A stretch of DNA of 64,000 nt. Source: a virus (lineage: Duplodnaviria > Heunggongvirae > Uroviricota > Caudoviricetes). Below, piece by piece: positions 15,366 to 37,352 of this stretch. The notes under the pieces were generated by a model. The model did no database searches, was not told the origin of the DNA, and worked only from the letters and a program-made list of their open reading frames with translations. The first letter of the stretch is position 1, and every line of letters begins with the position of its first letter. Location: the IMG/VR virus record IMGVR_UViG_3300008111_001458, one strand, 5' to 3'. Made by a program: the position numbers and the translations under genes.

Positions 15366-15758
15366 ATGAATAAAATTACTTTGGTTACTGAGCCAGATGA
15401 TATACTGGTAGATGCTTTTAGAATATTGTGCGTAAATCTAACCGTAGATCAAACACAGTTTCTTTCTGACATCGTAAATGATATGGAATATATAGTTGAC
15501 ACTGTTGTATATGTTTGGAACGATGGAGATGACGAAAAATGGTTATTTGATAAAAAGACAAAAAGTAATCTAATTGTCTTTAATGCAAGTACAGAATGTG
15601 GAGAGATAAATGGATATCTAGCTGCACAACCAAATTCGTTTTATTTTGGTCCTCTCAGAAATTTATCTCTCGTAAATATTAGAGATATATATGATGCAAC
15701 AGATTTTAAAGATACTTTATTAGAATATATCAGGAAATATGAACAAATTTACGAATAA
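15366..15758 (+). CDS. Hypothetical acidic protein
   Basis: 130-aa ORF. Confidence 0.4.
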   Translation: MNKITLVTEPDDILVDAFRILCVNLTVDQTQFLSDIVNDMEYIVDTVVYVWNDGDDEKWLFDKKTKSNLIVFNASTECGEINGYLAAQPNSFYFGPLRNLSLVNIRDIYDATDFKDTLLEYIRKYEQIYE

Positions 15759-15978
15759 ACCTTCTGGTAGTGTAGTTACAGTTAAAGATGGCGAAGATAT
15801 TAATCGTGCTCTTAGACGTTTTAAGAAAAAAATAGAAGAATCCGGCACACTTGACACCCTCCGTAAAAAAGAATTTTACGAAAAACCTACTACAGAACGT
15901 AAGCGTAAAAAATCAGCGGCTAAGGCACGTTGGCGCAAACAATTACGTTCACAAGAATTACCACCTAAACTCTATTGA
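15739..15978 (+). CDS. rpsU: Ribosomal protein bS21
   Basis: [44 protein letters not shown] aligns closely with bacterial S21 (ALRRFKRSCEKAG...[21 protein letters not shown]). Confidence 0.85.
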   Translation: [79 protein letters not shown]

Positions 15979-16003
15979 CATCTGAAAGAAAGTAGTTTAT
16001 AAT
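15975..16003 (+). promoter_or_regulatory. Perfect consensus sigma70 promoter TTGACA-17-TATAAT
   Basis: -35 at 15975-15980 and -10 at 15998-16003, 6 nt before ATG 16010. Confidence 0.55.
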
Positions 16004-16009
16004 AGTACT

Positions 16010-16591
16010 ATGAACTCAGATATAATGATAGACCTCGAAACCCTTGCCACCACTCCTGATGCTGCAATTTTAAGTATTGGCGCAGTGAAATTTGATCCGT
16101 TTGGGCAAGAATTAAAAGAACCAGCAATGGAAAGTTTTTATCTACGTGTAGATATTGACAGTTGTGATCGGTTAGGATTAGCTACATCACAAGATACTCT
16201 TGAATGGTGGGCAAAACAAAGTCAAGCAGCTCAAGACGAAGCATTTGGAACCGAAGGTAGAGTTGATATTGTTAGTGCTATGAATCAACTTTATAAATTC
16301 TGTTGGGGTGCTAAACGTGTATGGAGTCACGGTGCTGGCTTTGACGTTGTTATTTTAGAAACAGTATTTCGCAAAATGGGAAAAGGTTACCCTTGGAGTT
16401 TCTGGCAAGTAAGAGATACTAGAACAATTTTTGATCTTGGTATCAATCCAGACCGCCCTGAAGTATTAGCTCACCATGCGTTACACGATTCTTATAATCA
16501 AGCAATTGGTGTGCAAAATGTTTTCCGTAGATTGCGAACATCGTCGACATTAGACGGCCAATTGCTTTCTCCATTAAAGGATTCAAGATGA
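16010..16591 (+). CDS. DEDDh-type 3'-5' exonuclease (DnaQ / RNase T / oligoribonuclease-like)
   Basis: Exo I motif IMIDLETL, Exo [14 protein letters not shown] and Exo III HHALHDS (H-x4-D). Confidence 0.65.
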
Positions 16592-17667
16592 GAATCGAAG
16601 ATGAAATCAAATTAGATTTCAAAGATGTTCTTATTCGTCCTAAGCGCAGTACTTTATCAAGTCGCAAAGAAGTTGACTTAACAAGGACTTACAAATTTAA
16701 ACACAGTCGCGCCGAGTGGACAGGAGTTCCGATTATGGCCAGTAACATGGACGGTGTTGGTACACTAGAAATGGCTCATGCTCTATATCAACACAAAATG
16801 TTCACTTGCCTAGTTAAGAATATCAGTACGGTATACTTTGAAACAACCGTACAAGATATAGGAGGCAATCATTTCGCAGTAAGCACAGGGACTTCCGAAA
16901 AGGACTTTGAAAGATTAAGTAACATACTTAATTCTTATTCCGAAATAAAATTTATCTGTATAGATGTAGCAAATGGATATAGCGAACACTTCGGGGACTA
17001 TGTAGAAGAAGTGCGTGAGGCATTTCCTAATCACACAATTATCGCAGGTAACGTTGTTACCGCAGACATGACACAGGAGTTAATTTTACGTGGAGCAGAT
17101 ATTATCAAAGTGGGCATTGGTCCAGGCAGTGTTTGTACAACTAGGATACAAACTGGCGTCGGTTATCCTCAGCTCAGTGCTATTATTGAGTGTGCTGACG
17201 CTGCTCATGGTCTCGGCGGCCATATTATTGCTGATGGTGGTTGTGTGTGTCCCGGTGACATTGCTAAGGCGTTTGGCGCCGGAGCAGACTTTGTAATGTT
17301 AGGAGGCATGTTAGCCGGTCATGATGAGGGCGGCGGTGAAGTTATTGAAGAAATGCACGAACTTTCAAAACTTCAAAAAGATATGTTTTCAAATGATTAT
17401 GAAATTAAAAAATATGTAGAATTCTATGGAATGAGTTCAAATACTGCTATGAACAAGCATCATGGTGGCATAGCTGAATATCGTTCATCAGAAGGACGTA
17501 CGGTAAGAGTACCGTATAAGGGCCCGGTCCAAAGTACAATTTTGGATATGTTGGGCGGACTGCGTAGTTCTTGCACATATGTAGGTGCTGCAAGTCTTAA
17601 ACAATTATCTAAATGTACTACATTTATTAGGGTCAATATGCAATTTAATGATGTCTTTACGAGATAA
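16588..17667 (+). CDS. guaC: GMP reductase
   Basis: [23 protein letters not shown] ... [46 protein letters not shown] is almost collinear with E. coli GuaC. No CBS insert, which marks GuaC rather than IMPDH. Confidence 0.85.
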
Positions 17668-17748
17668 ATAAAAACGCAATTAGCACCCAATGGGCTAATT
17701 GTAACGAGCTCAGTGCTCATTAAATTCTTACTTTTTAAGGAGAAAAAT

Positions 17749-19662
17749 ATGTCAAAAATCATCGGTATCGATTTGGGTACCACAAACTCATGTGTAGCTG
17801 TTATTGAAAACGGCAAATCCAAAGTAATTGAAAACTCAGAAGGCGCAAGAACAACTCCGAGTATTGTTGCTTATACAGACAGCGATATTTTAGTAGGTGC
17901 TTCAGCAAAGCGTCAGGCGGTAACTAATCCCAAAAACACAATTTATGCATCTAAGCGGTTAATTGGACGTAAGTTCAATGAACAGGCTGTTCAGAAGGAC
18001 ATTGACCTAATGCCTTATGAAATTGTCAAGGCAACAAATGGTGATGCTTGGATTCGCGCACAAGGAAAAGAAATGGCACCTCCACAGGTGTCTGCAGAAG
18101 TTCTTCGCAAGATGAAAAAGACTGCAGAGGACTATTTAGGGCATGAAGTTACACAGGCTGTTATTACAGTGCCTGCTTACTTCAATGATAGTCAAAGACA
18201 GGCAACTAAAGATGCCGGTCAAATCGCTGGCTTAGAAGTTCTACGTATTATTAACGAACCTACTGCGGCTGCATTAAGCTACGGTGTTGACAAGACAGAC
18301 AAAGCTGATCGTAAGATTGCGGTGTATGACTTAGGTGGTGGCACATTTGATATCAGTATCATTGAGATTGCCAACGTCGAAGGCGACAAACAAATTGAAG
18401 TATTGTCAACAAACGGCGATACATTCTTAGGCGGTGAAGACTTTGACCAGCGCATTATGGATTATCTGGTTGAGGAATTTAAGAAAGAGCAAGGCATTGA
18501 TCTAACTAAAGATATGTTGGCACTACAACGTCTTAAGGACTCTGCTGAAAAAGCTAAGATTGAATTATCTAATTCTACACAAACTGAAGTTAATCTTCCA
18601 TACATTACTGCCGATGCTAGTGGTCCTAAACATCTAGTGGTAAAAATTACCAAGGCAAAATTGGAACAGTTAGTTGACGATTTAATTCAACGTTCATTAG
18701 AACCTTGTCGTATTGCTATGAAAGATGCCGGAGTTACCGCAGATCAGATCGACGAAGTTATTCTAGTTGGCGGCCAAACTCGCATGCCAAAGGTACAAGA
18801 AGAAGTAGAACGTTTATTTGGAAAAGCGCCACGTAAAGATGTTAACCCAGACGAAGCAGTAGCAGTTGGTGCTGCTATCCAAGGTGCTGTGTTGGGTGGT
18901 GATCGTAAAGATGTCCTATTGTTAGATGTTACTCCATTAACTTTGGGTATTGAAACAGTAGGCGGTGTAATGGCCAAACTGGTTGCTAAGAATACTACTA
19001 TTCCAACTAAGGCAAATCAAATTTTCAGTACAGCTGATGACAATCAACCTGCTGTTACTATTCGTGTGTTCCAAGGAGAACGCGAATTGGCACATCATAA
19101 CAAATTGTTAGGCGAATTTAATCTTGAAGGTATTGATCCAGCACCACGTGGTATGCCTCAAATTGAAGTTACATTTGATATTGATGCTAATGGTATTTTA
19201 AGCGTAAGTGCCAAAGACAAAAATACTGGTAAAGAAAATAAAATTACCATTAAAGCTAATAGCGGCATTACTGAAGATGAAATCAAACGTATGATCGCTG
19301 AAGCAGAACAATATGCAGAAGAAGATAAAAAAGCACGTGAAGTTATTGAAACACGTAATGGTGCATTATCTGAACTGTATACAATTCGCAGAGAATTAGA
19401 AGCAGAAAAAGATCTTGCTACAGAAGAAGAATGGAAAATAATTGAAGATGCACTAGAGGCTGCTGAAAAATTAGTCAATGATAATAGTGACATTGAAGAA
19501 ATTAAGAAAGGTCCTTTCAATGTAGCCGATGCTGCAAAACCTTTGTTTGAAAAAATTAAAGCCAAACGCGAAGCTGCCAAAGCAGAACAATCTGCACCGC
19601 AGCCAACTGATGGTGAAGTGATCGATGCTTCCTTTACAGCAACTGAAGGCAAGGCATCTTAA
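17749..19662 (+). CDS. dnaK: Hsp70 chaperone DnaK
   Basis: [33 protein letters not shown] and the EEVD-less bacterial C-terminus are present. The start is reset to ATG 17749 (RBS aaggag). Confidence 0.93.
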
Positions 19663-19753
19663 GAATACACATATGTGTGTATAATGTTGCGGTACCTAAT
19701 GGGCCGCAACATTGAGCATAAAGCTCATATTCTTACTTTAAAAGGAGATTAAT

Positions 19754-20191
19754 ATGAATAATAATCAGTTAGCACAAATTACAGCTCTTAACAGAGCTCT
19801 TATTGGATTTGACACACTGTTTGATCAAATGGAAAGACGTTTTTCTAATAGTGTATCTAATAACTATCCACCTCACAACATTCTTAAAACTGGTGAAAAT
19901 CAGTATGAGATTCAATTAGCAGTTACTGGATTTGATAAAACAGAAATTTCTGTTACTGTAGAGGACGGAATTCTTATTGTTAAAGGTGAAAGCATGGCTA
20001 CAGATCATGCGCCAGAACAATACATTCATCGCGGTCTTGCTACTCGCGATTTTGTTAAAGAATTTCCTCTAGCAGAACATATTGAAGTTACTGGAGCGGA
20101 AACCAAAAATGGTATGTTAACCATTAAGTTGGTCCGTAATGTTCCAGAGTCTGCGAAACCGAAAGTCATTGACATTGTAGACATTAAGTAA
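19754..20191 (+). CDS. Small heat-shock protein (Hsp20 / alpha-crystallin family)
   Basis: 145 aa with an alpha-crystallin domain pattern (EIQLAVTGFDKTEISVTVEDGILIVKGE ... NGMLTIKL). Confidence 0.8.
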   Translation: MNNNQLAQITALNRALIGFDTLFDQMERRFSNSVSNNYPPHNILKTGENQYEIQLAVTGFDKTEISVTVEDGILIVKGESMATDHAPEQYIHRGLATRDFVKEFPLAEHIEVTGAETKNGMLTIKLVRNVPESAKPKVIDIVDIK

Positions 20192-20197
20192 TATAAT

Positions 20198-20223
20198 TAA
20201 GGGGAAGGAAACTTCCCCTTAAT
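20198..20223 (+). terminator. Perfect 11-bp hairpin TTAAGGGGAAG-gaaa-CTTCCCCTTAA (terminator or attenuator between hsp20 and clpS)
   Basis: Exact inverted repeat with a GNRA loop and no strong T tract. Confidence 0.4.
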
Positions 20224-20240
20224 TAACCTACAGAGGAAAT

Positions 20241-20549
20241 ATGGCAGACGTAGAAACTAAAATCAAAGAAGTAACAAAGACAGTTGAAACTCAACCACCC
20301 AATCATTGGAAGGTAGTATTCTTAAACGATGATTATACTCCCATGGAATTTGTTGTTGCTCTTTTGGTTACTATTTTTAGGCACAGTGAACAATCTGCCG
20401 AGCAGATCACAATAGAAATACACAACACGGGCAGTGCTGTTGTTGGTTTATACACACACGAAATTGCAGAACAAAAGTCTATTGATGCAACAACCGTTTG
20501 CAGACAACACGGTCATCCTTTACAAATTACAATCGAAGAAGACAAATAA
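20241..20549 (+). CDS. clpS: ATP-dependent Clp protease adaptor ClpS
   Basis: VVFLNDDYTPMEFVVALLVTIF ... LYTHEIAEQK closely parallels E. coli ClpS. Confidence 0.85.
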   Translation: MADVETKIKEVTKTVETQPPNHWKVVFLNDDYTPMEFVVALLVTIFRHSEQSAEQITIEIHNTGSAVVGLYTHEIAEQKSIDATTVCRQHGHPLQITIEEDK

Positions 20550-20807
20550 ATGACAGCCGACGAGTTTAAGTTCATACGATATATGAACGCTGAAACTAGT
20601 CGGTTTTCTTTTTGGATAATTTTTCACGACCTTAGAAGATATAATTTGGGTAAAAAAGGAAGAAAGAATTTTATAAGCTTCTTTACAGAAATTCTAGGGC
20701 CAGTAGGTGAGCGTTGGCAATATGAAAAAACAATTCATACATTTTGTATAAAATTAGATAAAGAAATAGATGCCACAATGATGATACTGAGATACGGGCC
20801 TAAGTAA
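20550..20807 (+). CDS. Hypothetical protein
   Basis: 85-aa ORF. Confidence 0.35.
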   Translation: MTADEFKFIRYMNAETSRFSFWIIFHDLRRYNLGKKGRKNFISFFTEILGPVGERWQYEKTIHTFCIKLDKEIDATMMILRYGPK

Positions 20808-20817
20808 ATAAAAAACT

Positions 20818-21384
20818 ATGAGTTTAAAAGAAATTACCAAAGATCTTCATCACGAAGCAGAAACAACCCAATTTGCTAAGATGTTACTTAGCGGAAAAAT
20901 TACTAAAGAAGATTATGCCAACTACCTTTATCAGTTAGTATTAATTTATAATGCTATAGAGTTAGGTAATCGAGTAGAAGGCAATTTTAAAAATCTTCCT
21001 GGTTTAGAAAGAACACACGCAATCTATCAAGACTTTATTGAGATCGCAGGTGTTGATCACAATTACAAATGGTTACCTGGAACTATAGACTATTACAACT
21101 ATCTCTTAAATTTAGTTCGTGATCCTGCGCATCGTCCTAAAATCAAAGCTCATCTATATTGTCGACATATGGGAGATCTGTATGGTGGTCAAATAATTAA
21201 AAAACAAGTAGCACATATTAGCAAAGGTCGTTTTTATGATTTTAAAGATGCAGATGCATTAAAAATGTCCATACGTGCAGAACTAACTGATGACCTAGGA
21301 GACGAAGCAAGAGTTGCGTTTGAATGGGCCATTAAAATGATGAGAGAATTGTATAATGAGTCAGGTCTGGAACAGTCTAATTGA
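20818..21384 (+). CDS. Heme oxygenase
   Basis: 188 aa. The CRHMGDLYGGQ block matches the HO-1 signature YTRYLGDLSGGQ. Confidence 0.7.
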   Translation: MSLKEITKDLHHEAETTQFAKMLLSGKITKEDYANYLYQLVLIYNAIELGNRVEGNFKNLPGLERTHAIYQDFIEIAGVDHNYKWLPGTIDYYNYLLNLVRDPAHRPKIKAHLYCRHMGDLYGGQIIKKQVAHISKGRFYDFKDADALKMSIRAELTDDLGDEARVAFEWAIKMMRELYNESGLEQSN

Positions 21385-22036
21385 AATACAAAAACTGTTA
21401 GAAAAAAGATTTTCAGAGACAGGCATTGAAACTTTTGAGCCCGGAATGGAAAGATTTAATCAACCGGGTTGGGTAAATAGAGTTTGGTGCAGCGATCATT
21501 ATCGCAGAGCTCATGTCGACGTAGTTGACGCCCGATCCTCAAAGGGCCTTTGGATGATGCATTGCTGCATCTTTCCTCACATACACAATCCTGCTCCTAT
21601 TTTTGGATTTGATGTAATTGCAGGAAAAAATAAAATCACAGGTTGTTTTATAGACTACAGCCCAACAGCTGATAAACAGCATCCTATGATCGAATATTTT
21701 GCTGAAGAAGTCAGTAGATACGAATGGATCCGCAAACGTGAACTACCTGAATGGGCGCAACGTATATTCAGTTCACACATGGTGGCCGCTGGCAATGTGC
21801 AAGAAGAATCAGAATTATCTCAAATTAGCGGTCTAGCGAACATTCTAGTAAATCATTATTTAGAAACAGTAGGCGAAACAAATCACAAAGTTGCAGATAC
21901 AACGTTTGAGCAAAATTATTACGCACAGAATCAAAAACAAAATCCGCACACCCCTAGAGTTATGGTTAGTTTGGGGCTTAGTGAAGAAGATGTTAAGCAT
22001 TTTATTCAAGATTGTTTATTTCCAGAAATAAACTAA
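21356..22036 (+). CDS. Ferredoxin-dependent bilin reductase (PebS/PcyA/PcyX-like)
   Basis: 226 aa. N-terminal W..L...QK pattern and the central FDBR core (HIHNPAPIFGFDVIAG ... FIDYSP). It is adjacent to the heme oxygenase that supplies biliverdin. Confidence 0.7.
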   Translation: MSQVWNSLIEIQKLLEKRFSETGIETFEPGMERFNQPGWVNRVWCSDHYRRAHVDVVDARSSKGLWMMHCCIFPHIHNPAPIFGFDVIAGKNKITGCFIDYSPTADKQHPMIEYFAEEVSRYEWIRKRELPEWAQRIFSSHMVAAGNVQEESELSQISGLANILVNHYLETVGETNHKVADTTFEQNYYAQNQKQNPHTPRVMVSLGLSEEDVKHFIQDCLFPEIN

Positions 22037-22043
22037 ATATTCA

Positions 22044-22351: not shown

Positions 22352-23182
22352 ATGAAAAAAATAATAATAACGGGCGTATTGCTGGGATCTTTAACCACCC
22401 CTGCATTTTCGCAAACAACGTATGATAGTAAAAGTTTAGTAGATACCAATAATAACTCAACAAGTACTAGCACGGTTAACAGCACCAGTACCAACACTAA
22501 TAATAATATAAACACCAGTACAGTTAACAGTAATAGTGTCAATACCAATGTAAACCAAAATACCAGTACTAGTACGAGTGTTAATACCAACAACAATATT
22601 AATACCGGTCATACAACCAGTGCTAACACTAATACAAATAATAATACTAATGTAAACACTAGTACCAGTACAGCAACCAGTACCAATCAAAACAATAATG
22701 TAAATCAAAATATCAACAGTGGTGATATGACCAATCGTAATATTAATGACAGTAATATTACACAAAAAGTAATTCAACCTCCACCAACTGCCATTGCACC
22801 TGCAATGATGAGCGGTGGCAATAATGATTTATGTACTACAGGAACCAGTGGTGCTGTTCAAACACAAATATTAGGTGTCAGTAGTGGTGGTACAGTAAGA
22901 GATATGAATTGCGAAAGATTAAAAAACGCCAAGACACTTTATGATATGGGAATGAAAGTTGCTGCGGTAGCTACAATGTGTCAGGATCGTAGAGTTTTTG
23001 ATGCTATGTGGAATGCTGGCACACCTTGTCCTTATGAAGGTGTGATTGGTGAACAGGCTCGTGTAGCATGGAATGAAAATCCTAACAAGTGGCCAAAAAC
23101 TGAGGAACCAAAGAGTGATGATTTCTATAAGAAAACTGGCTTCGGCGCTTTGCTTGGCGCTCTGCTTTTCGCACTATTCTAA
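22352..23182 (+). CDS. Secreted protein with a long Asn/Thr/Ser-rich low-complexity region
   Basis: Signal peptide (AFSQ), then about 120 aa of N/T/S-rich low complexity with iterated short N-T-S triplets (STSTNTNNNINTST...), then a Cys-containing C-terminal domain. Confidence 0.5.
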   Translation: MKKIIITGVLLGSLTTPAFSQTTYDSKSLVDTNNNSTSTSTVNSTSTNTNNNINTSTVNSNSVNTNVNQNTSTSTSVNTNNNINTGHTTSANTNTNNNTNVNTSTSTATSTNQNNNVNQNINSGDMTNRNINDSNITQKVIQPPPTAIAPAMMSGGNNDLCTTGTSGAVQTQILGVSSGGTVRDMNCERLKNAKTLYDMGMKVAAVATMCQDRRVFDAMWNAGTPCPYEGVIGEQARVAWNENPNKWPKTEEPKSDDFYKKTGFGALLGALLFALF

Positions 23183-24953
23183 CGCTCAAGAACCTGGCGT
23201 TGAGTATACCACCGGCAACATAGTTCTTCCTACTGTTGCTGGTTCCGGAACGACTCCTTGGGTTGGGGGAGTGTATCAAGACAATCTCACCTGCTGGAGT
23301 TGGGGCAATCCAGGATATTGTGGACCAAACGCAATTGTTCGTCCGGGTGGAAGTATAAACTTCTCATTTGGTACGACAGACTTATATCAGAGCCAGGCCA
23401 TAGCAAATGTGTTACCTAATTCCGGTACTGGATTACAAGTTAACGGATATACTTTTAGTTTTATGGCTAAGAATGGTAATGGGTGGGACGATGGTCGCGT
23501 AGATTATCTAAACGCTTATGTGCATTTTAAAAACTCTAATGGTAGCGTAGTAGAGTATGATTCATATGATCTAAACTACAAATTTAATTGGACTAACTTT
23601 AATTTTTCAAGAAATTTTACAACACCATACTCTGCTAGTACATTAGGAAATGTTACTTATGGATTTGTTGGTCGTGATAATAATGGGTGGGCAGGACCTT
23701 ACGGTCCAGAAATTAATAATGTTAATTTTAGTCTAAGATATTCAGTTGATCAATGCGTGATAAATCCTCTTAGTAGTGTATCCTGTACTGGATATGCAGA
23801 AGCATTTAAAAATTATCAATGTTCAATAAATCCCTTATATGATAGTACATGTCCGGGTTACGCACAGGCTTATTATACACAACAATGTTCAATCAATGCT
23901 TTGTATGATCCCACTTGCCCTGGTTATGCGCAGGCTTATTATTCACAGCAGTGTTCAATAAATGCATTATACGATCCAGGATGTCCAGGTTACGCACAGG
24001 CTTTCTTTAATAATCAATGTTCGTTGAATGCACTTTATAATACACAATGCCCTGGTTATGCACAGGCAAAAGTTCTTAAAGATCTGCAGGATAAACAAAC
24101 CGAATCAACGGAAACTGCAACAACGACCAGTTCGCCAATCCCTACATCTTCAACCTCAACTGCACAAGCATCGTCACCAACAGTATCATTGGCCGATCCT
24201 ACTAGAACTGAAACACTTGTGACTACAGATGTGGGCGGAGTTGAATTAACTACCAGCGGTCAAATTAGCATACCCACTGGTCAAACTGCTTCTACTAAAG
24301 AAGCAATAAAAGAATCGACAAGAGAAGAAAATAAAACAGAATCCGCCAATAGAGAAACCGCCAATAGAGAATCTGACAGAAAACGTGTAGATCCTAGAGC
24401 TCTTGCTGTAGCCATGGCAGCAGTGGCAGCTACAGAACGTACAGCATTGGCTACATCAGAACAAGCAATAGTAATGAGTCAAGCTAGTATAGGTCCTAAT
24501 GACGGAACTAGTATAGCATTAGGTTCTGGATTAACTTTACAAAATAATAGATCTCAATCATTTAATGATGACAAGTTTGAAGATAAAAAGGATGAAGGCA
24601 AAAATAATACTGCACAAAAATCTTCCGGACCAACTGATAATATTAATTTACTGATAACACCAATTCAAACAGTTCCAGATACTAATCAAAAGGCAGGACC
24701 TAGTGTAAGAAGAGGTGGAGCAGTAGAAGGTATGGAGGGAGGACCAGATCCTACCACATTAGCAAAAGCACCGATGGATTTTAATCAATATCTTAATTCA
24801 CAATTAAAAGATGCACAGTTTTATCAAAGTAAAGAAATTTATCGAGGACAGCGAACTGTTGATAATCAAAGGTTGTTAAGAGGTTTGTCTGGAGGTAGTG
24901 ATGCACTACACCAAAGAATGATAGAACAACAATATAATATTTCAGGACAATAA
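23118..24953 (+). CDS. Secreted repeat protein (fiber or adhesin-like) with five 23-aa tandem repeats QCSINALYDPTCPGYAQAYY
   Basis: The start is reset to MISIRKLASALCLALCFSHYSNAQ, a signal peptide. Tandem Cys-containing repeats at 23750-24070, then a Ser/Thr-rich linker. Confidence 0.5.
   Translation: MISIRKLASALCLALCFSHYSNAQEPGVEYTTGNIVLPTVAGSGTTPWVGGVYQDNLTCWSWGNPGYCGPNAIVRPGGSINFSFGTTDLYQSQAIANVLPNSGTGLQVNGYTFSFMAKNGNGWDDGRVDYLNAYVHFKNSNGSVVEYDSYDLNYKFNWTNFNFSRNFTTPYSASTLGNVTYGFVGRDNNGWAGPYGPEINNVNFSLRYSVDQCVINPLSSVSCTGYAEAFKNYQCSINPLYDSTCPGYAQAYYTQQCSINALYDPTCPGYAQAYYSQQCSINALYDPGCPGYAQAFFNNQCSLNALYNTQCPGYAQAKVLKDLQDKQTESTETATTTSSPIPTSSTSTAQASSPTVSLADPTRTETLVTTDVGGVELTTSGQISIPTGQTASTKEAIKESTREENKTESANRETANRESDRKRVDPRALAVAMAAVAATERTALATSEQAIVMSQASIGPNDGTSIALGSGLTLQNNRSQSFNDDKFEDKKDEGKNNTAQKSSGPTDNINLLITPIQTVPDTNQKAGPSVRRGGAVEGMEGGPDPTTLAKAPMDFNQYLNSQLKDAQFYQSKEIYRGQRTVDNQRLLRGLSGGSDALHQRMIEQQYNISGQ
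23750..24070 (+). repeat. Five tandem in-frame 69-nt coding repeats
   Basis: Protein-level repeats (INPLYDSTCPGYAQAYYTQQCS and so on) inside CDS 23118-24953. Confidence 0.6.
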
Positions 24954-28268: not shown

Positions 28269-29062
28269 TCTTATTAATCCTGTTGTTCCCTATTAAGAGT
28301 TGGGCCGAATCCAACTCTTATCTTTATAATATCACCAATGATAAAATTGTCATGGGCGATAGATTAGATGAAGTACGACCAATTGCCAGCATAACAAAAA
28401 TTATGACTGCTATGATTGTATTAGACTACTATAAATCGTTATCTGATAAAATTAAAACTGGCACCGGAATGCTACCTCGTAAAGAGTATACTCTCGAACA
28501 AATACTAACTGCTATGTTGGTACGAAGTGATAATGGCGCTGCAGAAACATTGGCTAGAAATTTTCCCGGAGGTAGGAAGGAGTTTCTAATCCAGATGAAT
28601 CGCAAAGCCAATCAACTTAAAATGTATAATACCAACTTTGATGATCCAACAGGATTGAGTAGAAAAAACGTATCTTCTATTCACGATCTTAGTTTAATGA
28701 TGACAACGGCTCAAAAATATTCTAAAATTAGAGAAATTAGCATTAAGAAACAGGCATTATTTGAAACCAAATATAAAAAGAAAATTAGAACTATTCATTT
28801 GCATAATACTAATACACCAATACTTTTTGAATTTGATACTGTAGTGGTGTCTAAAACAGGGTATACCAACCCAGCTGGATGGTGTGTGGCAATGGTAGTT
28901 GAAAAGTTCAATAACACTTATGTTGTAATTGTCTTGGGTGCTAAAAACAAAGCGCATCGTATTGACAAAGTTAAGGAAATCATGTATAATCATATTGTTG
29001 ATGAAAGAGTTTTTGATAAAGACATAGACTATGATTTCCAAATCCCCCATCCTATTTTATAG
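28253..29062 (+). CDS. Serine-type D-alanyl-D-alanine carboxypeptidase (S11 / PBP5-like), secreted
   Basis: Signal peptide. SITK (SxxK) at 28390-28401, SDN at 28522-28530 and KTG at 28850-28858, in canonical order. Confidence 0.7.
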   Translation: MYRNLILLILLFPIKSWAESNSYLYNITNDKIVMGDRLDEVRPIASITKIMTAMIVLDYYKSLSDKIKTGTGMLPRKEYTLEQILTAMLVRSDNGAAETLARNFPGGRKEFLIQMNRKANQLKMYNTNFDDPTGLSRKNVSSIHDLSLMMTTAQKYSKIREISIKKQALFETKYKKKIRTIHLHNTNTPILFEFDTVVVSKTGYTNPAGWCVAMVVEKFNNTYVVIVLGAKNKAHRIDKVKEIMYNHIVDERVFDKDIDYDFQIPHPIL

Positions 29063-30706: not shown

Positions 30707-30918
30707 TGGATATGAATCAAGCAGCAGTATTTTTAGCAGGTAGTGTTTTAACTATGATTGGTTTTATAGTTATAGTTGTGGGATTAGTTATTATTAACAA
30801 TATTCTTCATAGGTATTGGAAACCTGTTAAGATGTGGAAATTTGATGTATATCCTCCGCAGTTCATGCATCAAGAACCTTTAATGGATCAACCTAAAGAA
30901 AAGGAACTTAAGAAATGA
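30706..30918 (+). CDS. Small membrane protein
   Basis: 70 aa with one TM. Confidence 0.4.
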   Translation: MDMNQAAVFLAGSVLTMIGFIVIVVGLVIINNILHRYWKPVKMWKFDVYPPQFMHQEPLMDQPKEKELKK

Positions 30919-31424: not shown

Positions 31425-31597
31425 TTAAAGTTGTACTGTCGTTCTTAGTTGTTGCTGTTGTATTTCATTTTGTAATCGAATCTTGGAGATATACTTCAGG
31501 AAAAGAACGTTGGAATAGTATAAAAACCTTGACATACAGTCTAGGTCTTGCTACACTAACTTTCATAGCATTATCGCTATTTGTTTTTTTATTTTAA
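31421..31597 (+). CDS. Small 2-TM membrane protein (58 aa)
   Basis: Hand-found ORF MIKVVLSFLVVAVVFHF... Confidence 0.3.
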   Translation: MIKVVLSFLVVAVVFHFVIESWRYTSGKERWNSIKTLTYSLGLATLTFIALSLFVFLF

Positions 31598-31609
31598 GGA
31601 TTTACACAC

Positions 31610-32407
31610 ATGAAACGTATCGCAACTCTTGGCCTTATCGCTGCCGCTGTGTTGGCAACTGGCTGTACTCGTATTGAAACCGGTGAGGTTGGTGTACGAG
31701 TTGGTTTTGACAAACAGGTTCAACCTGGTGAACTATTGCCTGGTTCGTTTAATCAGGTATTGATTGGCGACGTGCTTACATTCCCTATCAAGGATGTCAA
31801 CGTCACACTAGAGAACATGACTCCTGTGGCCAAAGATAATAGCACAATGAAAGACTTTGATGCTGTGGTTGTTTACAACATCAACCCACAACAAGTATCA
31901 GAACTGTATGCTACCAAGAACAAGGCTTTCCACGCTGACTTCAAAGGCGACACTTATGTGATGTATAACTACATTGTTCAGAATGCTCGTAATGCTATCT
32001 ACAAAGCCGCACGTAAGTACGAAGCCTTGGACATGGCAGACAATCGTGGCGAAATGGAGAAGTTCATCCAAGACGAGATCGTTCGCAACTTGTCAGAAGA
32101 AAAGTTGGACGGTACTATTATGATTAGTCAAGTGCTGATTCGTAATGTTGTGCCAGCAGACAGTGTGGTTGAATCAGCTAACGCATTAGTTCGTTCAAAG
32201 AACGAGTTGAAGCAGAAGGAAGTTGAAGTTAAGACTGCTGAAGCCGAAAGCCGTCGTATGGCAGCATTGGCTAACAACTCAGGTGCATCAATTGCATTCA
32301 TGCAGGCCCAAGCCATGTTAAATATCTCCGAAGGTATTAAGAACGGTCAAGTGCAGACTATTGTAGTGCCTTCAAACTTTAACGCTTTGATGTTACCCAA
32401 ACAATAA
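31610..32407 (+). CDS. Lipoprotein with SPFH/band-7-like domain
   Basis: Lipobox LATGC, and the C-terminal region resembles the HflK/C-type SPFH domain. Confidence 0.45.
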   Translation: MKRIATLGLIAAAVLATGCTRIETGEVGVRVGFDKQVQPGELLPGSFNQVLIGDVLTFPIKDVNVTLENMTPVAKDNSTMKDFDAVVVYNINPQQVSELYATKNKAFHADFKGDTYVMYNYIVQNARNAIYKAARKYEALDMADNRGEMEKFIQDEIVRNLSEEKLDGTIMISQVLIRNVVPADSVVESANALVRSKNELKQKEVEVKTAEAESRRMAALANNSGASIAFMQAQAMLNISEGIKNGQVQTIVVPSNFNALMLPKQ

Positions 32408-32575
32408 TGTAGGATTATTTCTTAGAGGTTAATTAGTGATATTAGAAATTATGATGTGGGGTTTTTTCTCCGCCTGGGGGTGGTTTGGAGCCAGTTATAT
32501 TAAAGATCAAATCTGGAAACCAGAAACTGTTGAGCAGGATAAGCAACAGAAACAAGAAAAGAAAGATTAATAATT

Positions 32576-32836
32576 ATGAATTATAATTTCAATATCACTA
32601 TGACAACTGATATATCTTCAACTATTGTAGAGGAAATAATAAAAAAAATAGTAGAAGAACAAACAGGTAAAAAAATTTCCTCTATAGAAGTTAAACTACG
32701 CCGAGTACAAAAAGGCATAGGTCCCAATGAATCAATTGACACTGTGTTTGACGGATATAACATTGTGTTTGTTGAAGAATCCACAAAAGGAAACAAACAA
32801 CCTAATACTGGATTTAAACCTGCTGTTTATCAATGA
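32576..32836 (+). CDS. Hypothetical small protein
   Basis: 86-aa ORF; first of a long run of coupled small ORFs. Confidence 0.35.
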   Translation: MNYNFNITMTTDISSTIVEEIIKKIVEEQTGKKISSIEVKLRRVQKGIGPNESIDTVFDGYNIVFVEESTKGNKQPNTGFKPAVYQ

Positions 32837-33159
32837 CTTTAACTAATCAAAGACTTATTGAAGAAATAAAAGGAATCCGCCGAGTGGTGATTAACATTTG
32901 CCACGGCGGATTTAGCCTTAGTGATCAAGCAATTGAAAAATATCGAGAGCTCACCGGTATAACTGATGAAAAATTTTGGGATCGAGATATATCAAGAGAC
33001 GATCCCTATCTAATTCAAATAATCAATGAAATGGGCGAAAAAGCCAACGGTTCTTACGCCGAATTAAAAATCGTAGAGATTCCTGCAGATGTTGATTGGA
33101 TTGTTGAGGAATACGATGGAAGAGAATGGATTGCCGAACGACATAGAACTTGGGACTAA
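32833..33159 (+). CDS. Hypothetical small protein
   Basis: 108-aa ORF. Confidence 0.4.
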   Translation: MTLTNQRLIEEIKGIRRVVINICHGGFSLSDQAIEKYRELTGITDEKFWDRDISRDDPYLIQIINEMGEKANGSYAELKIVEIPADVDWIVEEYDGREWIAERHRTWD

Positions 33160-33391
33160 ACTTAAACAAGTTTTAGCTACAAGATCTCGAGCTGTCTTTA
33201 GTTATCGTATAAACTTTGACACAATAGGATATGAATCTTTAGATCTCATGAGAAAGTGGTGTGAAGATAATTGTTCTGGACTTTGGCGATTAGAGCATGT
33301 CCACGCACTATATTTTCAATTTGAAAACGACAGAGATGCTACAATGTTTATGCTACGTTGGGGCACCGCAGAAGGAAATAGATTGAAATGA
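33116..33391 (+). CDS. Small protein, member 1 of the FxLKW C-terminal-motif paralog family
   Basis: Ends WCEDNCSG...LYFQFENDRDATMFMLRWG. The start is reset to MEENG. Confidence 0.45.
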   Translation: MEENGLPNDIELGTKLKQVLATRSRAVFSYRINFDTIGYESLDLMRKWCEDNCSGLWRLEHVHALYFQFENDRDATMFMLRWGTAEGNRLK

Positions 33392-33780
33392 TACAACCGT
33401 GGCAACTAAACCTTTTAGATAAAATGACACAGTATAAAGGTAAAGGTATGACAACAATTACTGGACGCAATTTAGGCAAGAGTGCCTTTTCAACTCAGGC
33501 TTTTCAAAGATTGTGGGAAGATATTCATGCTCGTCCTGTAGAAGATCTTAAGCTCACAGAAGGCACAGTCTACGGTGCTAGATATTATTGTGTAGAACCA
33601 GTTGGTGGAGTATGGCGAGAAATGGAAGCGTGGTGCGTAGAAACATTTGGTTCAGTTGGGGAACACATGTGGGGTAACGAGAAAGCACCAGATCCTGCAC
33701 AGCGTTGGTACATGAACAATCGCAAGTTCTGGTTCCACAATGAAGTAGATAGAATGGTGTTTGTATTAAAATGGCGATAA
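33388..33780 (+). CDS. Small protein, FxLKW family member 2
   Basis: Ends WCVETFG...FWFHNEVDRMVFVLKWR. Confidence 0.45.
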   Translation: MIQPWQLNLLDKMTQYKGKGMTTITGRNLGKSAFSTQAFQRLWEDIHARPVEDLKLTEGTVYGARYYCVEPVGGVWREMEAWCVETFGSVGEHMWGNEKAPDPAQRWYMNNRKFWFHNEVDRMVFVLKWR

Positions 33781-34148
33781 AACTTTTAAGACGAAAAGTT
33801 ATTATAAGAGAGCACGACTTTAATAAAGTTGAAGCTAAATCTCGGCACCTGTCATTATATGACAGGATGTCATTTACTCCTCTTAATCAAGATAGTTTAG
33901 AAAAATTAAAACTACAAGAAATTTTAAGAGGTAAGACTGGGCCTTTAGCAGCTATTGATACTGATCTTAAAATGCCTGCAGTTCTAGTGGCACAGTTACA
34001 AGACTTTCTCTACGACAAAAAATATCATCAATGGACTGTATCCATTGATGAAGAAGGTTACCTCTGTGTACAGTCTAGAAAGAATACACCTAGAACTAGA
34101 TTAGGGTGGGGTATCTTTGAAAAAGATATAGAAAGACATTATGAATAA
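33771..34148 (+). CDS. Hypothetical small protein (no family motif)
   Basis: 125-aa ORF. Confidence 0.4.
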   Translation: MAIKLLRRKVIIREHDFNKVEAKSRHLSLYDRMSFTPLNQDSLEKLKLQEILRGKTGPLAAIDTDLKMPAVLVAQLQDFLYDKKYHQWTVSIDEEGYLCVQSRKNTPRTRLGWGIFEKDIERHYE

Positions 34149-34404
34149 TTTAGAAGAAGAAATAACTCAAGAACTAGCTACACAGATGCAAAGTGAAATG
34201 GACTTTCATATTCTTTCTGATATGTTGGTCAAATCCTGCGGATGGAAGAAAGTCACATTAACCAGATTCTTTAGTCGTAAACATTCTGTGAATATTTTAA
34301 TGTGGTGCGAAGAAAATATTAAAAATCCTTTTGAACATAGAGGAAGCACTTTTGTATTTGAGAATGAAGGTGATGCTGTTAACTTTACACTAAAATGGTT
34401 ATGA
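34141..34404 (+). CDS. Small protein, FxLKW family member 3
   Basis: Ends WCEENIKNPFEHRGSTFVFENEGDAVNFTLKWL. Confidence 0.45.
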   Translation: MNNLEEEITQELATQMQSEMDFHILSDMLVKSCGWKKVTLTRFFSRKHSVNILMWCEENIKNPFEHRGSTFVFENEGDAVNFTLKWL

Positions 34405-34625
34405 AAACTGCTAGAGATTTTCCTTACCAAACAGTTACTGATAGAACCAATCATGGAAAAGCTGCAGAATGGTGCAAGGAAAAGTTTGGTCCTAGATGGG
34501 AAGCTATAGGATATAGAGAAGGTACATGGTGTACATTTTGGCAAGGTCGAGGCGTACCGGGAAGCTATGAATGGTTCTTTCTCAACGAACAAGATTATTT
34601 GATGTTTACTTTAAAATGGTTATAA
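34395..34625 (+). CDS. Small protein, FxLKW family member 4
   Basis: Starts MVMKTARDF. Ends WCKEKFG...WFFLNEQDYLMFTLKWL. Confidence 0.45.
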   Translation: MVMKTARDFPYQTVTDRTNHGKAAEWCKEKFGPRWEAIGYREGTWCTFWQGRGVPGSYEWFFLNEQDYLMFTLKWL

Positions 34626-34882
34626 AAACTTCTGTACACCATTGGCGTTTTGAGGACGGCAAGACAGTGCCTAACCCCAGTAGCCATTTCCCTTTAGGAC
34701 CTCCTCCTCGTGGTTGGTACTGTTGGGTATATCCCGAAGACGATCATGAGTTTGAAGAATGGATGGCTAAGATGTGTCCTACGACAGATTGCACACACCG
34801 ATTTAACGGTGGCGATCCCATGTACACCGTTTTTATTAAAGAAGATAAAGAAGCGACACTGTTTCAATTAAAATGGATGTAA
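34616..34882 (+). CDS. Small protein, FxLKW family member 5
   Basis: The start is reset to MVIKTSVHH, which parallels member 4. Ends WMAKMCPTTDC...VFIKEDKEATLFQLKWM. Confidence 0.45.
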   Translation: MVIKTSVHHWRFEDGKTVPNPSSHFPLGPPPRGWYCWVYPEDDHEFEEWMAKMCPTTDCTHRFNGGDPMYTVFIKEDKEATLFQLKWM

Positions 34883-34885
34883 TAC

Positions 34886-35281
34886 ATGGCAAGATGGTAT
34901 AAGGATATCGACAGAACTTTTCAAATTAATGAATATCTTTCTGATCGATATTCTTCAAATCATAAAGACAAGATTCGTTGGCCGGTAACAAATAAGTATG
35001 TTATAATAAACACCCCCGAAGGAGATCGCGTGGAAGAAGTTAAAGAGATAATAGTTCATCAATTCTCGATGGGGGATGTTGAAGATCCAGATCTTTACGC
35101 TGCTACTCCTCTATGGGAGTGGGAGAAAAGTGAACAAGGACAGTGGGTAATGAAAAATGCCGTGGATACCCCAACGTGGTATCGAATGGCTGATACCAGT
35201 ATATTTGGTTACAAATATCAAATTAGAGCCAAGCTAATGGGTCCGGCATTAACAGAATGGTTGTTGAGGTTTGGTGAGTGA
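34886..35281 (+). CDS. Hypothetical small protein (no family motif)
   Basis: 131-aa ORF. Confidence 0.4.
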   Translation: MARWYKDIDRTFQINEYLSDRYSSNHKDKIRWPVTNKYVIINTPEGDRVEEVKEIIVHQFSMGDVEDPDLYAATPLWEWEKSEQGQWVMKNAVDTPTWYRMADTSIFGYKYQIRAKLMGPALTEWLLRFGE

Positions 35282-35538
35282 AAGATAATCCAAAACAATT
35301 TATTACTATGGCTCACAAAAAAGTGGGTTCGGTATTATTAGAAGATGATAAACTGATGTCTATCTTAAATGGTTATCATATTGTACGATTAGAAGGTGAC
35401 GACGACTTTAATGAAAAACTCACGTGGTGTATGGAACACTGTCAAAGTAAATTTCGAGATATAAGAGAATCTAACTGCCGTGCTTGGTATTTTCAAAATG
35501 AACAGGACGCCAGTATGTTTGCCATGAAATGGTCTTAA
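35278..35538 (+). CDS. Small protein, FxLKW family member 6
   Basis: Ends WCMEHCQSKF...WYFQNEQDASMFAMKWS. Confidence 0.45.
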   Translation: MKDNPKQFITMAHKKVGSVLLEDDKLMSILNGYHIVRLEGDDDFNEKLTWCMEHCQSKFRDIRESNCRAWYFQNEQDASMFAMKWS

Positions 35539-35760
35539 ATGTTAGTAGTATATCTCGATGATTCAAAAATAGTCTACGATAGATCCTTAGAATATTTTCA
35601 AACAGCGGCAGATTGGGCCAAAGCTCAATGTCAAAGTTTTGTTGACTATCATGTTCAAGATGTTTCAGATGTATCAATGATGTTCGATCACGTGGCAGAA
35701 TATCGATTTAAAGATTCTAAAGATGTTTTAATGTTTCAATTAAAATGGAAAACCAATTGA
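35539..35760 (+). CDS. Small protein, FxLKW family member 7
   Basis: Ends WAKAQCQSF...YRFKDSKDVLMFQLKWKTN. Confidence 0.45.
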   Translation: MLVVYLDDSKIVYDRSLEYFQTAADWAKAQCQSFVDYHVQDVSDVSMMFDHVAEYRFKDSKDVLMFQLKWKTN

Positions 35761-35816
35761 CTTTTGAAGTTAATGAGTATATAATTAACTTGTTTAATAA
35801 TATATAGGTAACTTAA

Positions 35817-36227
35817 ATGAAAATTGGTTTTAGTTTTGGACGCTGTATTCGTGACATCGTTAACGGTGATGTTGAACTCGAAGATGTTGCATTTATTATT
35901 GCAGCAACTTGTATGCATGACGAGAAGCATGTACGTAATGTTATTCTTAACTATCTAACAGAACCTAGTTATCTCCTTGGCTACAATGAAAAAGATTGCA
36001 TGGAAGTAGGTCTTGCACTTTGGAATCAAAACAAAGTTCTACAACCTCGCAAACAGGGAATACCAAGACATGCCCAACCAGAAAATGCAGTTTGGGTTGA
36101 TATCTTTCCTACATCTCATTCCGACAGCGAAGCAGTAAAAACTGCTTGGGATCAATATCGCTTTATGTTACATATGGTTGAAAATGTAGACACTGAAGCT
36201 ATCGATGTTTTTAAAGAACCTTATTAA
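35817..36227 (+). CDS. Hypothetical protein
   Basis: 136-aa ORF. Confidence 0.4.
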   Translation: MKIGFSFGRCIRDIVNGDVELEDVAFIIAATCMHDEKHVRNVILNYLTEPSYLLGYNEKDCMEVGLALWNQNKVLQPRKQGIPRHAQPENAVWVDIFPTSHSDSEAVKTAWDQYRFMLHMVENVDTEAIDVFKEPY

Positions 36228-36229
36228 CA

Positions 36230-36502
36230 ATGTTTAGATTATTTTTTAATATCAGCAATCCCTGGAGCGATCGTTGGGAGAACATCAAACAGTGGTCTGG
36301 AACTACTCCTTTTAAACACAAGTTTTGGGAAGCGCAGATTGATAAAACTCATGATGTTATAGGTGTTGATATACAATACAGTGTTCGACAAGATCATGCA
36401 GGAATATTCCTGTGCCTGGCATTTTTGGGCTATGAAGTAATTTTTAATTTTTACGATAGCAGGCACTGGGATCATGAAACCAATAATTGGGCAAAAGATT
36501 AA
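36230..36502 (+). CDS. Hypothetical protein
   Basis: 90-aa ORF. Confidence 0.35.
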   Translation: MFRLFFNISNPWSDRWENIKQWSGTTPFKHKFWEAQIDKTHDVIGVDIQYSVRQDHAGIFLCLAFLGYEVIFNFYDSRHWDHETNNWAKD

Positions 36503-36573
36503 GTGCGCAGTTAATTAAATATGTATGAAATCTAAACTCTAGATAAGTACATAGTTAATCAAATGGAGCATTT

Positions 36574-37131
36574 GTGAAAAAAATCGAGGACTTCAATGCC
36601 GAAGATCGTATTGATATCGAACTACTCGGAAACAGTATACATTTCTTAGTGGGAGAAATAAATGAGGACACGATCAAAAGTGCTATAAAATGGATTGTTT
36701 ACGAAAACCTAGAGTCAAAGGAAAAAACATTAACTTTATACGTTAATTCAACAGGCGGTGATCTTTATCAAGCATTTGCCTTAATTGATGTAATGCGTAG
36801 CAGTAATCACACAATTAGAACTGTTGGTATCGGTGCTGTAATGAGTGCAGCATTTTTAATTTTTGCCAGCGGTGATCAAGGTGAAAGATACGCAGCTCGT
36901 AATACTAGTTTTATGTGTCATCAGTTTTCAGAAAGTATGGATAACAAATATCATGACCTTAAAGCTACTATGCGAGAAAATGATTTATGTAATGAAAAAA
37001 TGGTACAAATATTAAAAGACGCTACAGGACTTGCTCCTAGCGTAGTCAAAAAGAAATTACTGCCCGCCAGTGATGTTTATCTATCATCCCAGGAAGTCAT
37101 AGATCTCAACGTTGCAGATCATCTGTTATAA
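36574..37131 (+). CDS. ClpP-like serine protease subunit
   Basis: GTG start with RBS aatggag. [21 protein letters not shown] ... [31 protein letters not shown] matches the ClpP core, including Ser and His catalytic positions. Confidence 0.7.
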
Positions 37132-37133
37132 AT

Positions 37134-37352
37134 ATGTCTAAAGAAGATATTATTAAGTTCGACGGAACTATTGTAGAAGTTCTGCCCAACACAACTTATC
37201 GTGTAAAATTAGCAGATACCCAAACAGTAGTATATGCTTATTCTAGCGGTAAAATTAGGAAGAACAACATTAAAATTCTGTTAGGTGATACAGTAACTTT
37301 GGAGTTTAGCCCCTATGACCTTTCCAAAGGAAGGATTGTTTACCGAAAATAA
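37134..37352 (+). CDS. infA: Translation initiation factor IF-1
   Basis: 72 aa. [64 protein letters not shown] is near-collinear with E. coli InfA. Confidence 0.88.

Follow-up and report, generated by a model that had tools for sequence, protein, structure and literature searches.

The subject of this analysis is a 64,000-nt stretch of viral DNA (IMG/VR record IMGVR_UViG_3300008111_001458, Caudoviricetes), referred to in its whole length as the window, and in particular a 21.6-kb region within it that was followed up. An earlier reading made from the sequence alone (the sequence-only reading) had grouped genes of this region into a phage-borne translation and proteostasis toolkit. These encode ribosomal protein bS21 (S21), a full-length Hsp70 chaperone (DnaK), Hsp20 (a small heat-shock protein), the adaptor ClpS, a ClpP-like protease and translation initiation factor IF-1, together with a transfer-messenger RNA (tmRNA) further upstream. 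The features concerned lie as follows.

4209-4690, plus strand: two-piece (permuted) tmRNA of betaproteobacterial type (ARAGORN; Rfam RF04321 and RF01850)
15739-15978, plus strand: S21, with about 10 extra N-terminal residues (Pfam PF01165)
15975-16003, plus strand: perfect sigma-70 consensus promoter (TTGACA-17-TATAAT), before the exoribonuclease, GuaC, DnaK and Hsp20 genes
16010-16591, plus strand: Rv2179c-like 3'-5' exoribonuclease (Exo), a member of the syntenic block (Pfam PF16473, 134 bits)
16588-17667, plus strand: GMP reductase/IMPDH-family enzyme (GuaC), a variable member of the block (Pfam PF00478, 239 bits)
17749-19662, plus strand: full-length DnaK/Hsp70 (Pfam, 838 bits)
19754-20191, plus strand: Hsp20, an alpha-crystallin small heat-shock protein (Pfam PF00011, 60 bits)
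20169-20197, plus strand: second perfect sigma-70 consensus promoter, at the Hsp20/ClpS junction
20194-20225: palindrome with a 14-bp stem between Hsp20 and ClpS, overlapped by the second promoter
20241-20549, plus strand: ClpS N-degron adaptor (Pfam PF02617, 99.6 bits)
20818-21384, plus strand: heme oxygenase (HO; Pfam PF01126, 80 bits)
21356-22036, plus strand: ferredoxin-dependent bilin reductase (FDBR; Pfam PF05996, 60 bits)
36574-37131, plus strand: ClpP-like serine protease (Pfam PF00574, 104 bits)
37134-37352, plus strand: IF-1 (Pfam PF01176, 75 bits)

All six toolkit proteins far exceed their Pfam thresholds at these coordinates, and ARAGORN and Rfam agree on the tmRNA, which is of the two-piece kind; the gene assignments of the sequence-only reading are thus borne out. 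The toolkit genes are intact and none is a pseudogene, a possibility which that reading had raised. Moreover, the median ratio of nonsynonymous to synonymous substitution (dN/dS) against relatives was 0.07-0.22 in all nine genes tested, with dS saturated, which indicates that the toolkit genes are under purifying selection. Between them lie the exoribonuclease, the GMP-reductase-type enzyme, the heme oxygenase and the bilin reductase, which had gone unmentioned before.

The small members of the set retain their expected features. S21 matches its family with 70 bits (cutoff 27) over residues 13-64 and has a dN/dS of 0.16; N-terminal extensions of phage S21 have been noted before (PMC7162821). 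The alpha-crystallin domain of Hsp20 covers residues 45-141, and the protein is 42% identical to the Hsp20 of Methylophilales phage Melnitz. ClpS keeps the N-degron pocket, with the segment LNDDYTPMEFV, including the gatekeeper Met, and the pocket His aligning identically with the Caulobacter and E. coli proteins. No ClpA or ClpC partner for ClpS is encoded in the window and a host ClpA is assumed.

The arrangement of these genes is conserved well beyond the window. The order S21-Exo-(GuaC)-DnaK-Hsp20-ClpS-HO-FDBR is kept in about 70 of the 80 related IMG/VR loci fetched, on contigs of up to 353 kb, and the proteins of the block have diverged to 45-85% identity among these loci. Counted over 84 DnaK loci, 4 of which are near-identical copies of the window, S21 was present in 72, the exoribonuclease in 66, Hsp20 in 76, ClpS in 74, heme oxygenase in 61 and bilin reductase in 54, with GuaC in only 24. 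DnaK, Hsp20 and ClpS remain adjacent in more than 70 diverged loci. Since the same order recurs on many diverged viral contigs, the clustering is not a matter of chance. An identical DnaK is found on 23 public metagenome contigs, one of them of 0.2-1 Mb, and at least 595 IMG/VR stretches encode a DnaK at 73-82% identity, while the ClpP-like protein has 129 relatives there. The set is thus not confined to a single genome but inherited across a whole lineage. The heme oxygenase and the PcyX/PebS-like bilin reductase are non-proteostasis genes, found here in a phage that probably infects a betaproteobacterium incapable of photosynthesis.

Genes for capsid, portal, terminase or tail sheath are absent from the window (gp23, gp20, gp17, gp18, gp32, gp33, gp59 and baseplate genes are all missing from its 64 kb), and therefore the question of whether it is viral or cellular needed outside evidence. 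A PHROG search with the ten largest proteins between 38 and 64 kb returned only radical-SAM and aminotransferase families and no structural match, and a megablast search with the 21.6-kb region among 50,697 phage records yielded nothing, which leaves it without a close deposited relative. A tailspike-like gene lies just upstream of the window in the same genome. At least 12 contigs were common to the lists of DnaK and ClpP-like relatives, and on these the ClpP-like gene lies 17-20 kb downstream of DnaK, as in the window. In turn, within 7-9 kb downstream of ClpP-like homologues of 55-57% identity come gp33-gp59-gp32, baseplate and head completion genes, gp48 and gp53; this linkage to T4-like core genes, in the order seen in Melnitz, was found on a 162-kb contig and on several others. 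Shared genes and PHROG families tie the lineage to Melnitz and to Pelagibacter phage HTVC008M, its closest cultured relatives by shared proteins. Among the 80 closest cellular DnaK loci in GTDB, none has any of the genes that neighbour the phage DnaK. A scan of IMG/VR with the Melnitz capsid protein gp23 was swamped by marine contigs: each of the 80 loci returned was a close Melnitz-like relative (72-100% identical), and none also appeared among the contigs listed for DnaK or ClpP-like. Beyond the 3′ end of the window, exact protein matches gave only a 3.4-kb contig, and walking downstream of IF-1 in relatives by exact DNA patterns led to a tail-fibre-like repeat and then a minus-strand enzyme cluster, without reaching structural genes. 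We conclude that the window is probably the expanded accessory-gene region, between the ribonucleotide reductase (RNR) genes and gp33-gp59-gp32, of a large T4-like (Kyanoviridae-related) phage.

It might be argued that the window is a cellular or prophage contig, that its genes are recent captures from a host, or that the assembly is chimeric. This would account for the missing hallmark genes, for the fall in GC content from about 0.37 to about 0.31 after 38 kb and for the 67-76% identity between its DnaK and those of Burkholderiales. However, the viral synteny is conserved, grpE and dnaJ are absent from the viral loci, the viral DnaKs are monophyletic and more distant relatives of the ClpP-like gene are linked to T4-like genes. 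Also against it stand the low-GC genes of the right arm, which have diverged homologues downstream of ClpP-like in relatives, and the layout shared among related contigs, in which IF-1 is followed by a tail-fibre-like gene and then the minus-strand enzyme cluster. Such an origin is already largely refuted and we regard it as extremely improbable; the contig is viral, as the sequence-only reading had it.

DnaK matches positions 1-597 of the 599 in its Pfam profile and is colinear with residues 1-619 of its E. coli counterpart (852 bits); it preserves the nucleotide-binding motifs and the linker VLLLDVTPL. The architecture is complete, comprising nucleotide-binding domain, interdomain linker, substrate-binding beta domain and helical lid. 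An alternative GTG start is possible upstream at 17713, but the ATG at 17749 fits the start of the protein because it matches the N-terminus of E. coli DnaK. The median dN/dS against relatives is 0.08; this value and the conservation of the sequence are what bears on a putative ATP-dependent chaperone activity.

Bacterial Hsp70 works with a J-protein and a nucleotide-exchange factor, and the genes form a grpE-dnaK-dnaJ neighbourhood. In the 80 most similar cellular loci from GTDB, grpE accompanies dnaK in 76 and dnaJ in 70. No DnaJ or GrpE was found by tblastn in the window or in any of the 80 viral DnaK loci. The phage DnaK would therefore have to use host co-chaperones or genes elsewhere in the phage genome.

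The nearest cellular DnaKs (the 80 most similar loci in 185,579 GTDB species genomes) are nearly all betaproteobacterial, mostly from Burkholderiales and related metagenome-assembled genomes (MAGs). From 68 distinct viral and 79 cellular DnaKs a neighbour-joining tree was built. It placed the viral proteins next to Burkholderiales DnaK and grouped them as a single clade in all 50 bootstraps, the stem measuring 0.064 substitutions per site. Viral DnaKs are on average 82.7% identical to one another, with a minimum of 76%, a spread as wide as that of Burkholderiales (82.1%); between viral and cellular proteins the mean is 73.9%. A single viral clade with such internal diversity suggests that DnaK was captured once, from a betaproteobacterial lineage, and then diversified in phages over a long time. 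Thus the tree, which addresses for DnaK the question of recent host capture or long viral residence, indicates that the capture was single and old, not recent. One GTDB record, RFSP01000260.1 (L324), a 3,048-bp piece of a MAG labelled 'Betaproteobacteria bacterium', encodes a DnaK 81% identical to that of the window. As this value is in the viral range and above the other cellular hits, the record may stem from a phage and have been mis-binned with a bacterial MAG.

Is this DnaK there to fold proteins? It could instead be mainly a regulator or decoy, binding sigma-32 to damp the host's heat-shock response and the proteases that belong to it, or neutralising chaperone-dependent defences, with folding secondary. 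E. coli DnaK is a negative regulator of sigma-32, and the J-protein of phage RB43 targets the sigma-32 circuit. The idea would also suit a DnaK that has DnaJ or GrpE beside it in no viral locus examined and whose promoter context suggests early, strong expression. DnaJ-dependent anti-phage defence has been discussed (PMC12619734). On the other hand, catalytic and substrate-binding features are conserved, with strong purifying selection along the whole length, and the constant adjacency to Hsp20 fits a holdase-foldase pair. A role mainly in regulation seems unlikely to us.

The promoter context is as follows. Four perfect TTGACA-N16-18-TATAAT sites occur in the window (15975-16003, 20169-20197, 28962-28990 and 40129-40156), against 0.19 expected by chance, and two of the four directly precede Exo-GuaC-DnaK-Hsp20 and ClpS. 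In the loci of relatives there are 67 such sites in 1.34 Mb; one lies downstream of S21 in 16 of 69 relatives and at the Hsp20-ClpS junction in 14 of 70. The window shows no enrichment of TATAAATA, the late-promoter motif of T4 (4 sites, 11 expected). The toolkit genes are spread over at least two transcription units.

We now turn to the ClpP-like protease. The Pfam match spans positions 12-177 of the 182 in the profile. The sequence-only reading had proposed an alignment check of its catalytic triad. In an alignment with solved ClpPs, all three of Ser91, His116 and Asp167 fall on the catalytic residues, and they are invariant in at least 98% of 54 distinct members of the family. The 60 best PDB matches listed are all cellular ClpPs, about 30% identical, and the best deposited phage protein reaches at most 38%, while identity to the IMG/VR relatives within the lineage is 55-82%; the protein therefore represents a divergent, virus-associated branch of ClpP. 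Its N-terminal region falls outside the match to the ClpP profile, which makes its docking to host unfoldases uncertain. The window has no AAA+ gene, but in five more divergent relatives a genuine ClpX (zf-C4_ClpX, AAA_2 and D2-small domains) is encoded 4-7 kb from the ClpP-like gene (L148:14373-15602; also L150, L155, L158 and L160), which favours a ClpP that depends on an unfoldase over a protease of the capsid.

In many phages the protease of head maturation belongs to the ClpP family, and the window protein could likewise be a prohead protease acting in capsid maturation, with no part in proteostasis. Several of its weaker tblastn matches are annotated as head maturation proteases, and the axial-loop region at the N-terminus of cellular ClpP is the part left unmatched. 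Its genomic position tells a different story: it stands among accessory genes beside IF-1, not with portal or capsid genes, and in relatives it is upstream of gp33-gp59-gp32, outside the head module. Moreover, the related T4-like phage Melnitz has a gp21-type prohead protease of its own. With PDB matches that are uniformly cellular ClpP among those listed, and with true ClpX nearby in five relatives, we find a function in capsid maturation very improbable and treat the protein as a ClpP.

IF-1 consists of a single S1-like OB domain, residues 1-71 aligning with residues 1-70 of a solved bacterial IF-1 chain. In 26 of 80 relatives its gene is found within 10 kb of the ClpP-like gene, and in 9 the two are immediate neighbours. 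In many relatives an array of 24-34 tRNA genes stands between the two (about 1.5-10 kb downstream of the ClpP-like gene in L092, L096, L097, L099, L100, L114, L116, L117, L121, L127, L133 and L147). ARAGORN found no tRNA gene anywhere in the window, where the ClpP-like and IF-1 genes are 2 nt apart (37131-37134), and the array is therefore missing in this phage. In three relatives ARAGORN reported tRNAs with the anticodon CTA, amber-suppressor-like and labelled tRNA-Pyl (L063:6171-6245, L103:8891-8965 and L124:5778-5853). Two further genes belong to this neighbourhood.

31610-32407, plus strand: SPFH/Band-7 protein with a lipoprotein-signal-like N-terminus (Pfam PF01145, 63 bits)
37315-37983, plus strand: HExxH (HETIH) protein, tentatively a SprT-like metallopeptidase (motif read from the translation)

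An SPFH/Band-7 gene is found near the ClpP-like gene in 6 relatives; the window copy has a lipobox-like N-terminus and might modulate a membrane protease. The HETIH protein (222 residues) adjoins IF-1 in 11 relatives. Its SprT-like Pfam match is below threshold (E=0.18), and it may be a metallopeptidase.

The tmRNA was called permuted by ARAGORN, with the tag ANDNAFDFTAMSFTGNTVANDSKFALAA, and scored above the gathering thresholds of two Rfam families (tmRNA_permuted, RF04321, 152.6 bits; beta_tmRNA, RF01850, 135.9 bits). No riboswitch was found here. The host clades that carry this two-piece type are presumably those indicated by the name of the Rfam family. Because the tmRNA fits the betaproteobacterial two-piece model and the nearest cellular DnaKs are from Burkholderiales, the host is most likely a betaproteobacterium of Burkholderiales type. 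No SmpB domain is present in the window and host SmpB is assumed.

The tag has 28 residues (reading frame 4513-4599) and ends in KFALAA before the stop codon. In 13 related loci, too, a permuted tmRNA is found upstream of DnaK. A tag core, [TA]FDF[ST]AMSFTGN[ST]V, is kept at the peptide level with synonymous codon changes in five distinct relatives, and other relatives have ordinary short tags of the ANDEQFALAA type. The loci to which these tag observations refer are L010, L042, L045, L068, L080, L082 and L083. The core could be a recognition element for the phage ClpP-like protease, for ClpX where present, for ClpS or for DnaK. If so, the lineage would run a partly phage-private tagging and degradation route through its unusually long tag, and aberrant or host proteins that bear the tag would go to the machinery of the phage instead of to host SspB-ClpXP. 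We put this forward as a speculation that is rather improbable.

Taken together, these data make it probable that the window is the accessory region of a large, uncultivated T4-like myophage, infecting betaproteobacteria of freshwater type, in which the translation and proteostasis genes are long resident, DnaK having been captured once and the ClpP-like protease belonging to a divergent viral branch. As to the timing of expression, the choice of partners and joint action, we propose that the toolkit genes would be transcribed early by host RNA polymerase from the consensus sigma-70 promoters, as is usual for early genes of T4-like phages, and would supply extra copies of factors that are limiting, or that are to be biased, during infection. 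S21 and IF-1 would add to or bias 30S initiation complexes, and the tmRNA, with host SmpB, would free stalled ribosomes and tag their products. Hsp20 might hold unfolding or newly made proteins for DnaK to refold with host DnaJ, GrpE and ClpB, as a holdase-foldase pair. ClpS could retarget host ClpAP to N-degron substrates, and the ClpP-like protease could work with host ClpX or ClpA or, in some relatives, with the phage ClpX. The sequence-only reading had the tmRNA, ClpS and the ClpP-like protease acting as a chain from tagging through delivery to degradation. E. coli ClpS inhibits the degradation of SsrA-tagged proteins by ClpAP, and therefore the components do not form a single linear pipeline.

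Several points weigh against this reading. The window has none of the structural genes named above, and the link to T4-like structural genes comes from distant ClpP-like relatives only, not from the window's own contig. The DnaK tree was made by neighbour joining only, and its cellular set was drawn from the 80 most similar GTDB loci and is not exhaustive. The N-terminus of the ClpP-like protein is shorter than in ClpP and does not align: the first profile position in the Pfam match is 12, and in the PDB alignment residue 16 of the query is the first to pair, with residue 24 of the chain. Moreover, DnaJ, GrpE, ClpA, ClpC, ClpX, ClpB and SmpB are all absent from the 64 kb, and so every partnership is an assumed one. 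Lastly, the toolkit is interleaved with unrelated metabolic genes and its ClpP-like and IF-1 genes are 17 kb from DnaK, which is explained by a loose set of genes, each useful by itself, no less well than by a coordinated system.

That these are indeed independent accessory genes in a permissive part of the genome, without functional coupling, and that the toolkit is a grouping made by its reader, is an explanation we consider quite possible, if short of likely. It would explain why S21, DnaK, Hsp20 and ClpS share the block with an exoribonuclease, a GMP reductase, a heme oxygenase and a bilin reductase, why GuaC, IF-1, tmRNA and ClpX each occur in only some relatives, and why ClpP-like and IF-1, besides being 17 kb from DnaK, are parted from each other by the tRNA array in relatives. 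An Hsp20-ClpS pair without DnaK also exists in PA5oct-like phages and in phage Phosso. It explains less well the adjacency of DnaK, Hsp20 and ClpS in more than 70 diverged loci, the pairing of ClpP-like with ClpX in some relatives, and the gathering of translation genes (tRNA arrays and IF-1) beside ClpP-like in this lineage. The claim that the set amounts to a systematic reprogramming of host protein quality control is accordingly sustained in part: the genes are intact and viral, but they are interleaved with metabolic genes, divided among at least two transcription units and without their partners, and a coordinated action would be an extrapolation from them.

All of the components are known from other phages. 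IF1, S21 and tmRNA occur in huge phages (PMC7162821), and ClpP, ClpS, Hsp20 and DnaJ in cultured jumbo phages, where Hsp70 was assumed to be host-derived (PMC7824862). DnaK and DnaJ were described in moraphages infecting Bacteroidota, with the DnaK seen as a recent transfer (PMC12619734), DnaK and S21 on Lake Baikal viral scaffolds (PMC7678222), and a two-piece tmRNA with S21 in Melnitz (PMC9004378). Full-length DnaK is nearly absent from cultured phages; its occurrences in INPHARED are limited to huge phages from metagenomes, Lak among them, and to records with the look of contamination.

The closest parallels in layout are Melnitz EXVC044M, HTVC008M and Mosig (Kyanoviridae), which like the window have an accessory region from RNR to gp33-gp59-gp32 with bS21, a cell-wall hydrolase, a two-piece tmRNA and Hsp20 (PMC9004378). 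Pelagibacter phage Mosig also shares the pair of heme oxygenase and PcyX-like reductase. Proteins common to the window and these phages are 35-50% identical. However, tblastn with the window open reading frames found no homologue of DnaK, ClpS, ClpP-like or IF-1 in Melnitz, and HTVC008M and Mosig are not among the listed phage matches for DnaK or ClpP-like. The three genomes are of about 141-147 kb, whereas contigs of the window lineage reach 353-364 kb, and the tmRNA of Melnitz is of alphaproteobacterial type with a glutamine riboswitch, unlike the betaproteobacterial type of the window.

Among more distant systems, the huge phages of Al-Shayeb et al. 2020 and the Lak megaphages share IF1, S21 and tmRNA with the window (PMC7162821), and some have a full-length DnaK of 50-59% identity. 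They belong to other lineages and hosts (Bacteroidota/Prevotella and others), their DnaKs are far more distant and the conserved block is unreported for them. The moraphages of Perez-Hernandez et al. 2025 are likewise large freshwater phages with DnaK and Hsp20 (PMC12619734), but their DnaK is of Flavobacteriales type, recent and often accompanied by DnaJ, whereas that of the window is of betaproteobacterial type, an old capture by the tree and without DnaJ nearby. PA5oct-like Pseudomonas jumbo phages and Sinorhizobium phage Phosso share the adjacent Hsp20-ClpS pair, and Phosso in addition has a ClpP-family protein 37% identical to the ClpP-like protein of the window; these phages are of unrelated lineages, have no DnaK and show identities of 30-42%. 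The viral population VP_1254 from Lake Baikal (Coutinho et al. 2020) is known from freshwater scaffolds of about 17 kb with DnaK and S21 (PMC7678222) and, likened by description only, may be of the same or a neighbouring lineage. Its DnaK was used only for host prediction (Methyloglobulus, a gammaproteobacterium), and no conserved block, ClpS, ClpP, IF-1, tmRNA or DnaK monophyly was described (PMC7678222).

In the literature we found no description of a conserved DnaK-Hsp20-ClpS block with S21, of its linkage to an island of ClpP-like and IF-1 (with a tRNA array), or of a monophyletic, co-chaperone-free DnaK clade within a T4-like lineage. What the sequence-only reading had called an unusual combination is thus one for which no earlier description was found, although every component had already been reported in phages. 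The lineage indicates that phages can keep a full Hsp70 as a stable gene, passed on vertically and without its co-chaperones. How a foreign Hsp70 is made by a virus to work with the DnaJ and GrpE of the host could be studied in this natural system, and so could the question of whether the folding and degradation capacity of the host sets a limit to large phages of aquatic bacteria. Practical uses are modest: the DnaK clade might mark the lineage and act as a signal for predicting Burkholderiales hosts, and the GTDB 'Betaproteobacteria' MAG fragment with its 81% identical DnaK is a warning for binning pipelines.

Lastly, several other genes in the window deserve mention. The low-GC (about 0.31) right arm is a cluster at 38928-63675, mostly on the minus strand, that encodes six radical-SAM enzymes, one with a B12-binding domain, together with an S-adenosylmethionine decarboxylase, a class-III aminotransferase, 2-oxoglutarate/Fe(II) oxygenases, Asp/Asn beta-hydroxylases and a methyltransferase. 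Homologues in relatives are only 22-43% identical and the cluster is therefore hypervariable. Eight small paralogues (73-130 residues) at 20550-20807 and 33089-35760 share a C-terminal module, W(C)xExC...F.NE.DA.MF.LKW, and have no Pfam or PHROG match. At 22352-24953 lie two secreted-looking proteins without a family match, one with low-complexity sequence of Asn, Thr and Ser; the second, of 626 residues, contains five tandem copies of QCSINALYDPxCPGYAQAyy. Finally, a row of genes at 6284-9919 encodes a peroxiredoxin of AhpC type, a member of the AhpD/CMD family, PstS, which binds phosphate, and a phosphate-selective porin O/P, and these are auxiliary genes of phosphate uptake and oxidative stress.

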